From a virus (Duplodnaviria > Caudoviricetes), in the IMG/VR virus record IMGVR_UViG_3300045806_000066, positions 1 through 62,339 of that record: DNA of 62,339 nucleotides; one strand, written 5' to 3'. Positions 49,598 to 62,289 of the stretch are shown here, piece by piece. Within the stretch, counting starts at the first letter, position 1; each line of letters starts with the position of its first letter. A model generated the notes under the pieces. It did not search any database and had not been told where the DNA came from. It worked only from the letters and a program-made list of their open reading frames with translations. The translations under genes were made by a program, and so were the position numbers.

Positions 49598-51310
49598 TTA
49601 CTTTCCGAGTCGCCGAATGGTTCCGAAGCGCCGCCCGATGGTGGCCGGCGCGTTCGCCTTCTGTATCTCCGCCTGCAGACGCTGGCGGTGGATGTACAGC
49701 GAATTCTCGTCGAGCCCGCTGGCCTTCATCTTCGCCAGTTTCTCCTCCATCTCTTCTTCCCGCGGCTTCTTTCCGGGTGAGAGCATCGACTTGAGGCCGT
49801 AGCGGGCAGCTTCCGAGGTGTCCATCTCGATGCGCGCCGCCCCTTTGTCGGTTTTCAGTACCCGGTCCAAGTCTTTCGGATCGCGCATGAGAAGCGGAAT
49901 CGACGACACCAATTCCGCACAGTTCGCCGAGATCAGCCACACGCTATCGCCGGTAGCACCTTCGCGCTTGGTTTCCAGCAGCATGTTCGACATCAGACTC
50001 CATCCGCCCACCACATCGGTATCGGCAGCCTGGGGGTAAGGTAGCCCGTTCTTGGTCAGGATGGAGCCCATGCTCTGCGCGATGGTGTTCTTGCTGCTGC
50101 GCTGGGCGAATGCGTCCGGGGAGAGGTAGAACGCGCCATCGGTATCGGACAGCTTCTCGCGCTCCTCGACCGGCGTCCGCTCCACGATCTGCAGAGCGAT
50201 GTCGTTCTCGGAAATCTCTCGCGTTCCGCCCTCGTCCTGCGCCGCCGCGCCACCGGCCACGTATTCCCGGTAGGTCAACACCACCTTGAGCGTGCGGGTC
50301 ACGTCCCAGCCCAGAAGCTTCTTTACATCCTCGGGCGACATCTCGCCGCGGGCGTGCCAGTAGGTTGCGCAATAGTGGCCGCGCCCCCAATCCTGGGACA
50401 ACCACTTCTGCCACCACGGCTTGATGATCTTGGAAACTACCTCGGGAGAGAGTACCGTCTTATCCCGGTCGTATGTGCGGCCAAAGAAAGCACCTTCCAG
50501 CGATTCCCATGAGCCCCAGAAATCGCGCTGTACCAGCGCCTCATCCTGCGAGACCAGCGCCTTGCCGTAATCGGATCGGGTTGCGCAGAACTCGGCTCGC
50601 TGCGCATCGGTCCAGCCGTAGTAATCTTCCTCGTCCAGCCCGTCCTCTTCGAGCGCCACCCGCACCCATTCCACGTTGTCAAACGGGCGGACGTGGACGA
50701 AAGAGAAGTCCTCGCGCCGCTCATTCTCACGGAACTCGTGCAGATGGAAAACACGACGCAGGAAGTCAATTCCGACGCCGCCCATATTGAATGCTAGGTA
50801 CAGCTTGCAGGTTCCCATCTTGACGCCCGGCCAGCGGACGGCCTGCTTGATCTCGCGCAACTCCTGCTCAGTGAATTGCTCGGCCTGGTCCACCGCGACA
50901 TCGAAGAAGTTTGCCGAGCGGAACCGGTTGATTACATCGTCGAGCGATTCGGCGTGTGTGAAGATCAGTTCCGACGGCGGCCCGCTCTCCATCGGGAATA
51001 CCAGTTTGCGCTCGGTCTTTTTGTAGTACGGGGCCAGTTCGGGAAACTGGCGCATTATCACGTCCTCGTGATAGCGCCGAACCTGATCCGAGTTGCGCAT
51101 GACAATCACGCGCACCGTGCCGGGGTTTTCCATGCAGCGCGTGAGCATGATCCGTTGCATCCCGCCCGACTTGGCCCCGCCACGGCCGCCGCCGTTGCCA
51201 ATCCAGGTTGAGGCTCCGGACTCCATCAGGTCGTACACTTCGACCTGCTTCGGCTGCAGTACGATCGCGGGCTCCGGCTGCGAGATTGTCCCTATCGCTG
51301 GGGTCGCCAT
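49598..51310 (-). CDS. terL: Terminase large subunit with atypical motifs
   Basis: LQPKQ, Walker A GGGRGGAKS, Walker B VAVDQAE, FNMGG, and nuclease DWG...SPDAF...D..EAARY. ATG overlaps the giant gene's TGA. Confidence 0.85.
   Translation of the reverse strand: MATPAIGTISQPEPAIVLQPKQVEVYDLMESGASTWIGNGGGRGGAKSGGMQRIMLTRCMENPGTVRVIVMRNSDQVRRYHEDVIMRQFPELAPYYKKTERKLVFPMESGPPSELIFTHAESLDDVINRFRSANFFDVAVDQAEQFTEQELREIKQAVRWPGVKMGTCKLYLAFNMGGVGIDFLRRVFHLHEFRENERREDFSFVHVRPFDNVEWVRVALEEDGLDEEDYYGWTDAQRAEFCATRSDYGKALVSQDEALVQRDFWGSWESLEGAFFGRTYDRDKTVLSPEVVSKIIKPWWQKWLSQDWGRGHYCATYWHARGEMSPEDVKKLLGWDVTRTLKVVLTYREYVAGGAAAQDEGGTREISENDIALQIVERTPVEEREKLSDTDGAFYLSPDAFAQRSSKNTIAQSMGSILTKNGLPYPQAADTDVVGGWSLMSNMLLETKREGATGDSVWLISANCAELVSSIPLLMRDPKDLDRVLKTDKGAARIEMDTSEAARYGLKSMLSPGKKPREEEMEEKLAKMKASGLDENSLYIHRQRLQAEIQKANAPATIGRRFGTIRRLGK

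Positions 51311-62289: not shown

Follow-up and report, generated by a model that had tools for sequence, protein, structure and literature searches.

We describe here the gene for a giant polyvalent protein in the 62,339-nucleotide record IMGVR_UViG_3300045806_000066, a complete genome of a Caudoviricetes virus that we refer to as the window. The two ends of the window are identical over a 127-bp direct terminal repeat (1-127 = 62213-62339), and the genome is accordingly taken to be either circular or terminally redundant, with a length of ~62.2 kb. Because of this repeat the genes at the two window ends are neighbours, and the 531-residue gene at 77..1672 precedes the giant open reading frame (ORF). 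An earlier description of this DNA from its letters alone (the sequence-only reading) had given the ORF and its 3,659 residues exactly as we find them (Table 1, with an ATG start), and had proposed that it is coupled by overlap to the gene before it and to terL. One-base overlaps are seen at both ends: the TAA of the 531-residue gene and the start codon of the giant ORF have a base in common (TAATG) across the terminal repeat, as have the TGA of the giant ORF and the probable ATG of the terL-like gene at 51310 (TGATG). The order on this strand is terS, a weak major-head match, an SU10-type adaptor (33.4 bits), genes for proteins of 1,128, 192 and 531 residues, the giant gene, terL and an endolysin, with the giant gene standing last in the structural string; no portal was identified among the family matches of the window proteins.

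Table 1. Features of the giant gene and its immediate neighbours, in window coordinates
Feature	Residues	Position	Strand	Basis or remark
Giant polyvalent-protein gene		51310..62289	minus	3,659 codons, ATG start
Tandem motif copy 1, VTLDFSKAQP	6-15	62245..62274	minus	
Tandem motif copy 2, VTLDFSKAQP	25-34	62188..62217	minus	
Low-complexity N-terminal region	1-508	60766..62289	minus	composition; predicted local distance difference test score (pLDDT) <50 for residues 320-508
Divergent RelA/SpoT-like nucleotidyltransferase	509-679	60253..60765	minus	fold and homologue P0003
2H phosphoesterase	699-889	59623..60195	minus	Pfam, HxT motifs, fold
Small beta domain	929-979	59353..59505	minus	between 2H and HAD, conserved in relatives
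Capless T4-Pnkp-like HAD phosphatase	999-1094	59008..59295	minus	motif, PHROGs, fold
N6-adenine-type methyltransferase	1257-1563	57601..58521	minus	motifs, PHROGs, PADLOC
Low-complexity A/G/P/S/R-rich linker	1564-1718	57136..57600	minus	dual-coding
Nested +1-frame gene, 115 residues		57219..57566	minus	isoelectric point 4.5; ATG; GAGG with 7-nt spacer
Strawberry-notch (Sno) superfamily 2 (SF2) helicase	1719-2483	54841..57135	minus	Pfam and Walker motifs
C1 region	2484-2900	53590..54840	minus	goes with Sno helicase in 59/60 tabulated homologues
C2-C3 region	2901-3659	51313..53589	minus	helical, no known fold
terL-like gene		49598..51310	minus	phrog_2, 6.1e-15
Upstream 531-residue gene (P0122)		77..1672	minus	candidate second ejection protein, by size and position only
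192-residue gene (P0123)		1647..2225	minus	candidate first ejection protein, by size and position only

The five enzyme assignments of the sequence-only reading all hold, in the order RelA/SpoT-like domain, 2H phosphoesterase, HAD phosphatase, adenine methyltransferase and Sno helicase, and Pfam, PHROGs, motifs and folds agree with the positions that it gave. The helicase matches AAA_34 (2.1e-86, 290.1 bits against a cut-off of 27) and Helicase_C_4 (1.3e-73, 248.6 bits against 30.5), with Walker A GTGVGKG at residue 1793 and Walker B DESH at residue 1903. The methyltransferase has EPSAGNG at 1375 (motif I) and NPPF at 1439 (motif IV), matches phrog_6263 (1.3e-10) and the PADLOC model mad2 (1e-8), and has no Pfam match. 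PF13563 recognizes the 2H domain at 39.5 bits against a cut-off of 27, and the two HxT motifs are H749-V-T and H829-A-T. In the HAD domain, DLDGT at 1006 corresponds to motif I (DxDxT) and phrog_1238 matches at 1.3e-9; scores lie below the curated cut-offs of PF25109 (13.5 against 27.6) and TIGR01662 (14.8 against 44.6), and phmmer searches of PDB sequences with the whole protein and with the HAD piece return nothing meaningful.

Further work was needed for the RelA/SpoT-like domain because the query has no match to the Pfam family PF04607 (RelA_SpoT) at E<=1 and lies below its gathering score. An HMMER search with residues 520-700 recovers 27 proteins at E<=0.001, all of them giants or fragments of giants. 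Weak RelA_SpoT matches occur at the same place in three of 26 scanned relatives (E 0.019-0.033), and residues 356-539 of homologue P0003, which align with query residues 500-674, score 30.0 bits against the Pfam cut-off of 27. In an AlphaFold (AF2) model of residues 320-1120, computed from 27 sequences, confidence is high for residues 509-679, 699-889, 929-979 and 999-1094; residues 320-508, the only modelled part of the N-terminal 508, are disordered, and BLAST segments show that a Gly/Ala-rich stretch at residues ~350-480 is common to several homologues. Comparison of the separate segments with known folds, which the sequence-only reading had suggested, gave Foldseek and VIA matches for the RelA-like, 2H and HAD domains. 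For the RelA-like fold, the Foldseek match in the PDB is to the pneumococcal GTP pyrophosphokinase 2be3 (E 5.6e-5, template modelling (TM) score 0.53), and VIA gives Z 12.7 to Tas1 (157 aligned, root-mean-square deviation (rmsd) 3.9), 12.4 to RelQ and 10.4 to CapRel. Residues R551, K553, K561, D571, E629 and Q631 are conserved in this family, D571 and E629 being invariant in the 27 sequences, and we take these residues to be the catalytic R-x-K, D-x-x-G-x-R and E-x-Q motifs; the region that we presume to be the G-Y-x-S-x-H acceptor-nucleotide loop has another sequence in the query. The domain therefore shares the fold of RelQ, RelP, Tas1 and CapRel (Z 10.4-12.7) but differs from small alarmone synthetases and toxSAS in lying below Pfam detection and in being embedded in a giant protein. 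The 2H model is closest to drCPDase (VIA Z 14.7, 159 aligned, rmsd 3.4), and Foldseek likewise returns 2H enzymes from the PDB; the Pfam family of Acb1, PF23474, scores 16.7 bits, below its gathering score of 27, and the model matches Acb1 (Z 12.1) no better than it matches other 2H enzymes. The HAD fold matches 2obb (BT_0820) at Z 8.8 and the T4 Pnkp phosphatase at 8.7 (5uj0) and 8.2 (1ltq), with 95-106 residues aligned.

Two copies of VTLDFSKAQP had been noticed at the N-terminus in the sequence-only reading and both are present; its description of this N-terminus as ejection-protein-like finds no support in any family match to known ejection proteins. We examined 118 homologues, having dropped P0019, P0030 and P0054, whose sequences start within the methylase or the helicase. 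In 43 of the 118, the first 80 residues contain an ungapped tandem repeat with a score of at least 40, compared with 0-8 of 118 in eight control windows placed elsewhere in these proteins, and the repeat beats all 50 shuffles in 49 of 118. Among the 51 proteins scoring at least 35, the repeat begins by residue 12 in 46, the median copy spacing is 19 residues, and an aromatic residue lies within two positions of an acidic one in 44. The position of the motif is shared by these homologues but its sequence is not, as illustrated by DIFDQV, PSGFELD and NPFADPNFG. The VTLDFSKAQP pair exemplifies a tandem acidic-aromatic motif that recurs at the N-terminus across the family, and we regard this motif as a candidate capsid-targeting or loading signal because, by analogy, P1 DarB carries its capsid signal at the same N-terminal position. 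The DarB N-terminus itself looks different and is without the tandem acidic-aromatic motif.

The C-terminal region is mostly helical in its model, as the sequence-only reading had expected, and when modelled as one piece of ~1,170 residues it has a mean pLDDT of 61.7. A tblastn search of cultured phages with the C-terminal 1,169 residues gave no match, Foldseek against the PDB was uninformative (best E 0.012, an AcrA-like hairpin), the wide VIA comparison returned a coiled-coil hairpin alone (model residues 106-182), and a search for related loci with a single C-terminal piece as query found none. The model resembles C-terminal pieces of other viral polyvalent proteins in BFVD (E 3e-5 to 1e-3, TM ~0.2), and C2-C3 has a single hydrophobic stretch, residues 3485-3512. 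Membership of the C-terminus in LPD38 (PF18857) was considered and is not established, there being no Pfam match in the query and an hhalign probability of 30% over 23 columns against a 16-sequence profile; the ESM feature score to LPD38 clusters is 0.95.

Relatives with different contents indicate which parts of the giant travel together. C2-C3 is common to the close clade and to a relative that has no methylase-helicase pair, a 2,098-residue giant on a viral contig (L006:5226-11522) that has the N-terminus, the RelA-like module and C2-C3 and no methylase, helicase or nested gene. The order of genes around it is a 1,128-residue-like, a 192-residue-like and a 531-residue-like gene, the giant, a small ORF, terL (phrog_979, 1.5e-28) and endolysin. 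In P0066 the N-terminus, the RelA-like module, the HAD domain and C3 correspond to those of the query, and precomputed SNF2-related and Eco57I-type methylase domains replace the Sno pair. P0126 and P0135 have the same RelA-like and HAD modules with an SNF2-type helicase, and the Eco57I-type methylase is present in P0135, as in P0066. By these domain matches, the central Sno pair is swapped for an analogous pair in P0066, P0126 and P0135, and the methylase-helicase pair looks like exchangeable cargo. Because the L006 giant keeps both ends without this pair, we infer that a conserved carrier is made up of the N- and C-terminal parts, with the enzymes as its cargo. In L005 (2180-11642) and in L010, the homologue is split into two ORFs, one of 718 residues with the 2H domain and one of 2,469 residues with the methylase, helicase and C-terminus.

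The low-complexity linker between methylase and helicase carries, as judged from coding signals and conservation, a second gene in the +1 frame that is predicted to encode an acidic protein of 115 residues. The product has an ordinary composition where the giant frame encodes an Ala/Gly/Pro/Ser/Arg-rich linker. In the giant frame, the G+C content at third codon positions (GC3) has a mean of 0.74 and drops to 0.18-0.38 in four windows starting at residues 1576-1651, in which first-position G+C climbs to 0.68-0.86. The same +1-frame ORF is found at the same place in four of four distinct related loci with the linker (L005, L007, L008 and L009; L010 repeats the sequence of L005 and L013 that of L009), giving five sequences together with the window. 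A Met lies ~20 codons before the conserved core in all five, and the position of the stop is kept in the close clade. Pairwise differences per +1-frame codon position are 0.465/0.356/0.536, and a frame-blind DNA alignment of the linker ORF gives 0.466/0.376/0.532; in an alignment based on the giant frame, the values for that frame are 0.526/0.466/0.382, with the third position the least variable, compared with 0.24-0.28/0.13-0.20/0.57-0.61 in three control stretches in the methylase and helicase. Amino acid identity across the linker is 32-49% in the +1 frame versus 21-35% in the giant frame. Moreover, the giant frame is open in five of five sequences, whereas recoding the small protein synonymously keeps it open in only 0.5-4% of cases, and these sequence comparisons argue that selection keeps both frames open. 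We consider it quite unlikely that the +1-frame ORF is not independently translated and is instead the frameshifted tail of a short isoform or an untranslated relic of a gene fusion. The Shine-Dalgarno-like GAGG, clear in the window, is weak or distant in L007-L009, as such an origin would allow, and free-standing homologue ORFs would fit the capture of a pre-existing gene; a relic would decay, however, and the conserved Met and stop, the substitutions that follow the +1 frame and the higher identity in that frame all speak against this alternative.

Searches with the nested-protein family found 16 metagenome loci, one of which is identical to the window. In 14 of the 15 others the giant frame is closed, and a methylase or helicase lies beside none of the 15 (E<=1e-5; several contigs are short). 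The relatives in L016-L030 are free-standing, 170-217 residues long, with an N-terminal extension and no giant gene around them. A 111-residue copy at L018:1312-1835 overlaps a 157-residue ORF that resembles the linker of the giant (43.6%, E 1e-17), an arrangement that is possibly an intermediate state. One free-standing copy lies ~1.4 kb from an aldo/keto reductase gene, and two other neighbours of free-standing relatives match nothing in the PDB or in phages. Thirteen relatives, 49-93% identical, are present in the protein database as separately called proteins, mostly on very short contigs; the 115-residue protein matches no Pfam family, and a search of viral contigs with the nested-protein alignment gave no match. 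Because free-standing relatives exist, the nested gene was probably captured and not invented in place. Same-strand nested genes are known from lambda Rz/Rz1, and the likeness is that a small folded protein is read from another frame across a low-complexity part of a larger gene, with both frames open; the difference is that the 115-residue protein belongs to a family with free-standing relatives, which makes capture probable. Among the papers listed in our literature search, none reports nested genes in DarB-like or polyvalent genes. Thirty-one alternative-frame ORFs of at least 70 residues inside the giant gene were tested, and those other than the linker ORF gave weak matches only (E 1e-3 to 7e-14); they were rejected as genes, lying over conserved domains with conserved DNA and showing no GC3 collapse. 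A GC3 dip at residues 226-375 was likewise rejected as a second nested gene, as it fits the Ala/Gly/Pro-rich composition there and the +1 ORF is without a conserved counterpart among the loci examined.

As part of placing the giant among known proteins, we identified 161 giant homologues of 2,000-6,400 residues, of metagenomic origin, in a whole-length search (E<=1e-3 among 2,200 scored candidates). In the first 60 of these, the Sno helicase is present in all, C1 in 59, the methylase in 58, the 2H domain in 24 and C2-C3 (the last 760 residues) in 14. The variable N-terminal modules of the homologues include GGDEF, RelA_SpoT, 2H, His_Phos_1, Zeta toxin, FtsK-gamma, SLT, ddrB-ParB, ART and several LPD domains. 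The polyvalent proteins described by Iyer et al. 2017 are marked by a shared core of this kind with variable N-terminal modules, and the giant is a phage-type member of that known class and a well-dissected added example of it. The polyvalent label had already been given in the sequence-only reading, and it is borne out by five enzyme domains in one chain within a late or structural operon: the class has two to fifteen conflict-related domains per polypeptide, and its phage context of terminase genes and late genes is found here in terS, terL, head and adaptor genes on the same strand and in the synteny with L006. As described in PMC5512222, the polyvalent proteins include the methylase-helicase pair and 2H, RelA/SpoT and GGDEF domains, and according to that account RelA/SpoT, 2H and LPD38 are confined to phage-type members. 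The giant resembles the class in being a late-gene product with an adenine methylase-SF2 helicase pair, 2H and RelA/SpoT domains and a C-terminus like those of other LPD proteins; it differs in its Strawberry-notch helicase, which is reported there in "a few instances" only, and we saw neither a HAD phosphatase nor a nested gene nor an N-terminal tandem motif described in PMC5512222.

Module counts were made with profiles built from this family in a set of 121 homologues that includes the query, and gave the RelA-like domain in nine of 121, 2H in 26 and HAD in three; HAD is also present in 18 of the 27 proteins recovered through the RelA-like module, and the RelA-like, 2H and HAD triad occurs together in 12 stored proteins. 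Whether the combination of five enzymes is new had been left open in the sequence-only reading, and this check of domain architectures gives a negative answer: the combination is not unique, because P0003 (3,638 residues) carries all five enzyme types. Cultured relatives are distant, Bacteroides phage BS-TP4 being 25.6% identical over the methylase-helicase pair, and Skulduggery, Parlo and many Vibrio phages match the methylase piece alone.

The sequence-only reading had also compared the giant with DarB of phage P1, which, according to PMC9024508 and PMC6630229, is a packaged head protein with a signal for capsid targeting at its N-terminus and shields incoming DNA from type I restriction. 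The functional likeness stands, in that both proteins have a methyltransferase N-terminal to an SF2 helicase in one large chain (residues 1257-1563 and 1719-2483 of the giant), but clear homology is not detected. The best BLASTP match between P1 DarB and the methylase-helicase pair has E 0.004 over 55 residues, and the Pfam families differ, DarB having an SNF2-related helicase, an N6_Mtase/Eco57I methylase and no RelA-like/2H/HAD triad. No P1 record is among the best 40 of 122 matching phage records, and the organism tally of the 122 includes no Escherichia. These comparisons indicate that the giant and DarB are analogues and not orthologues. Giants of 3,700-4,900 residues are also found in Bcep22-/PBC5-like and Skulduggery-type podophages (JC1 gp69, Bcep22 gp75, Atu_ph08 gp21, Skulduggery gp28), where these DarB-like proteins are placed at the end of the virion module, before the lysis genes, and are virion-associated in JC1 (PMC9144972). 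The methylase part alone is detectably similar (~29% over ~190 residues), and their N-terminal domains, as given in PMC6630229, are lytic transglycosylases or peptidases and not the triad. N4 gp50 and T7 gp16 are each described as the largest member of a trio of internal proteins that are ejected together, in which an enzyme is joined to regions for ejection and encapsidation (PMC5512222; PMC8954989), and in this the giant would be like them; there is no sequence or significant fold similarity, and the cargo is different.

We consider it probable, on balance, that the giant is a phage-type polyvalent protein that is packaged and injected with the DNA and that holds counter-defence enzymes between carrier ends. 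Packaging and injection are suggested by gene order, by synteny with one relative (L006) and by the virion proteomics of analogous giants. The giant would be made late and loaded into the capsid, perhaps via the tandem N-terminal motif. It would exit together with the DNA or before it, completing a consecutive trio of ejection-type proteins in which it is the last and, at 3,659 residues, the largest, the other two having 192 and 531 residues. The methylase-helicase pair would track along the entering DNA and methylate it, as DarB does, and the N-terminal triad would work on ribose 2'/3' chemistry, either destroying cyclic-nucleotide alarm signals and making an alarmone-like nucleotide or healing RNA 3' ends. 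The sizes of the three products and the consecutive position of their genes after the tail genes fit the podovirus gp14/gp15/gp16 set; family searches gave no match and fold comparisons no significant one. According to PMC8954989, size and synteny are the features by which such proteins are identified in podoviruses. Of the analogous giants, JC1 gp69 (4,515 residues, DarB-like) was detected in virions by mass spectrometry (PMC9144972), and P1 DarB is reported to be a head protein whose N-terminal 30 residues suffice for capsid targeting (PMC9024508). Several observations weigh against packaging and injection by a podovirus-like particle. The 531- and 192-residue upstream proteins match no ejection-protein family, gp14-like transmembrane helices are not visible by eye in P0123, and the Pfam scan shows no peptidase domain able to release the modules. 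The split homologue of L005 and L010 lies between DnaB-like genes and two integrases with a ParB-like gene, not among structural genes, and its carrier could be a different kind of mobile element. In addition, the phage is far from every cultured phage, the giant gene having no megablast match and the capsid protein no match among them and terL being at best 22.8% identical, and the evidence for podovirus morphology is one Pfam match, that of the SU10 adaptor.

The split homologue, with no structural genes within the 8-10 kb examined, would also be expected if the giant were not packaged and worked inside the cell that makes it, for example through methylation of progeny DNA ahead of packaging and changes to host nucleotide or RNA metabolism late in infection, and a methylase-helicase pair could act on replicating DNA. 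We think this unlikely, given that the giant gene lies between tail-side genes and terL with one-base overlaps, that L006 has the same order, that the analogous giants are virion proteins in published work (PMC9144972; PMC9024508) and that the tandem motif is family-wide where DarB has its capsid signal. A less probable view than packaged counter-defence, yet one that deserves to be taken seriously, is that the essential role of the giant is structural, as the largest subunit of a channel for DNA ejection, equivalent in position to T7 gp16 or the N4 virion RNA polymerase, with the enzymes as dispensable passengers. The three consecutive genes after the tail genes, the L006 relative that keeps both ends without the methylase-helicase pair, and weak structural matches in BFVD to "Protein inside capsid D" (E 4.4e-3, prob 0.66) are all consistent with such a role, and N4 is reported to eject an enzyme of ~3,500 residues together with two ejection proteins (PMC13434306). 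Nevertheless, no significant similarity to any solved ejectosome protein is seen and the giant has one hydrophobic stretch only; a structural role is, moreover, compatible with injected counter-defence enzymes and does not exclude them. The substrates of the triad form a separate question. The sequence-only reading had named DNA restriction and nucleotide signalling as the targets, and signalling is one of at least two readings, since the T4-Pnkp-like HAD fits RNA 3'-end healing equally well. That the triad repairs or edits RNA 3' ends, such as those of tRNAs cut by anticodon nucleases or 3'-pyrophosphorylated by host toxSAS enzymes, and does not degrade immune nucleotide signals is a somewhat doubtful alternative. 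Capless HADs tend to take macromolecular substrates, and the HAD domain is capless, with a fold near that of the 3'-phosphatase of T4 Pnkp (Z 8.7 and 8.2) and that of Pnkp1, a component of an RNA-repair complex (Z 7.6); the 2H domain comes closest in fold to CPDase and LigT-type enzymes (Z 14.7 and 14.5), and the tRNA pyrophosphokinase CapRel matches the RelA-like domain at Z 10.4. The Pfam scan shows no RNA ligase or 5'-kinase domain, however, and the same 2H model matches Acb1 (Z 12.1) and the poxvirus cGAMP phosphodiesterase (Z 12.4), while the top RelA-like match, Tas1 (Z 12.7), is a (p)ppApp synthetase; fold alone cannot assign a substrate. The domain composition put forward in the sequence-only reading is right, and the injection and the targets that it proposed are plausible.

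The N-terminal tandem motif, the evidence for carrier and cargo, and the nested gene are the points that go beyond the known class. More speculatively, and with considerable doubt on our part, the ends might form a reusable carrier, in which the N-terminal motif loads and the C-terminal module ejects any cargo, the captured nested gene might supply from the same late message a small acidic protein that acts as a counter-defence factor or as a regulator of the methylase-helicase pair, and the triad might be an injected kit. If so, this kit would act in the opening seconds of infection to reset alarm nucleotides or the 3' ends of RNA. The tandem motif offers a concrete candidate for what directs giant proteins into capsids and could be put to use in loading foreign cargo, and the relative without a methylase-helicase pair and that with another type of pair point to which parts are carrier and which cargo. 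A nested gene in the linker would mean that genes are overlooked when giants are annotated and that a second protein has a part in shaping their "floppy linkers".

The giant itself belongs to a described class, and the phage appears to infect a hard-to-culture soil phylum. Its host is probably an Acidobacteriota bacterium, because all four genome matches to the C-terminal region (L010-L013) are Acidobacteriota assemblies, L010 being from Terriglobales, and Candidatus Angelobacter is given as the source of one giant homologue. Among cultured phages, a Tunturiibacter phage gives the best match to the 2H domain. Among the neighbouring genes, the 531-residue protein was considered as a known ejection protein and rejected, with no family match and only a 0.80 feature lead to Inj_translocase. 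The terS gene at 25345-25878 is ~24 kb from terL (49598-51310), and terS is likewise reported to be far from terL in Bcep22-like podophages, including JC1 (PMC9144972). A gene of the PAPS-reductase family (34209-35162, minus strand; Pfam 1.1e-20, phrog_424 2.5e-53) lies in the replication module. ARAGORN predicts two tRNA-Pro genes, one at 6430-6507 on the minus strand with anticodon AGG and one at 36838-36906 on the plus strand with anticodon CGG, the latter on the strand opposite to the genes around it.

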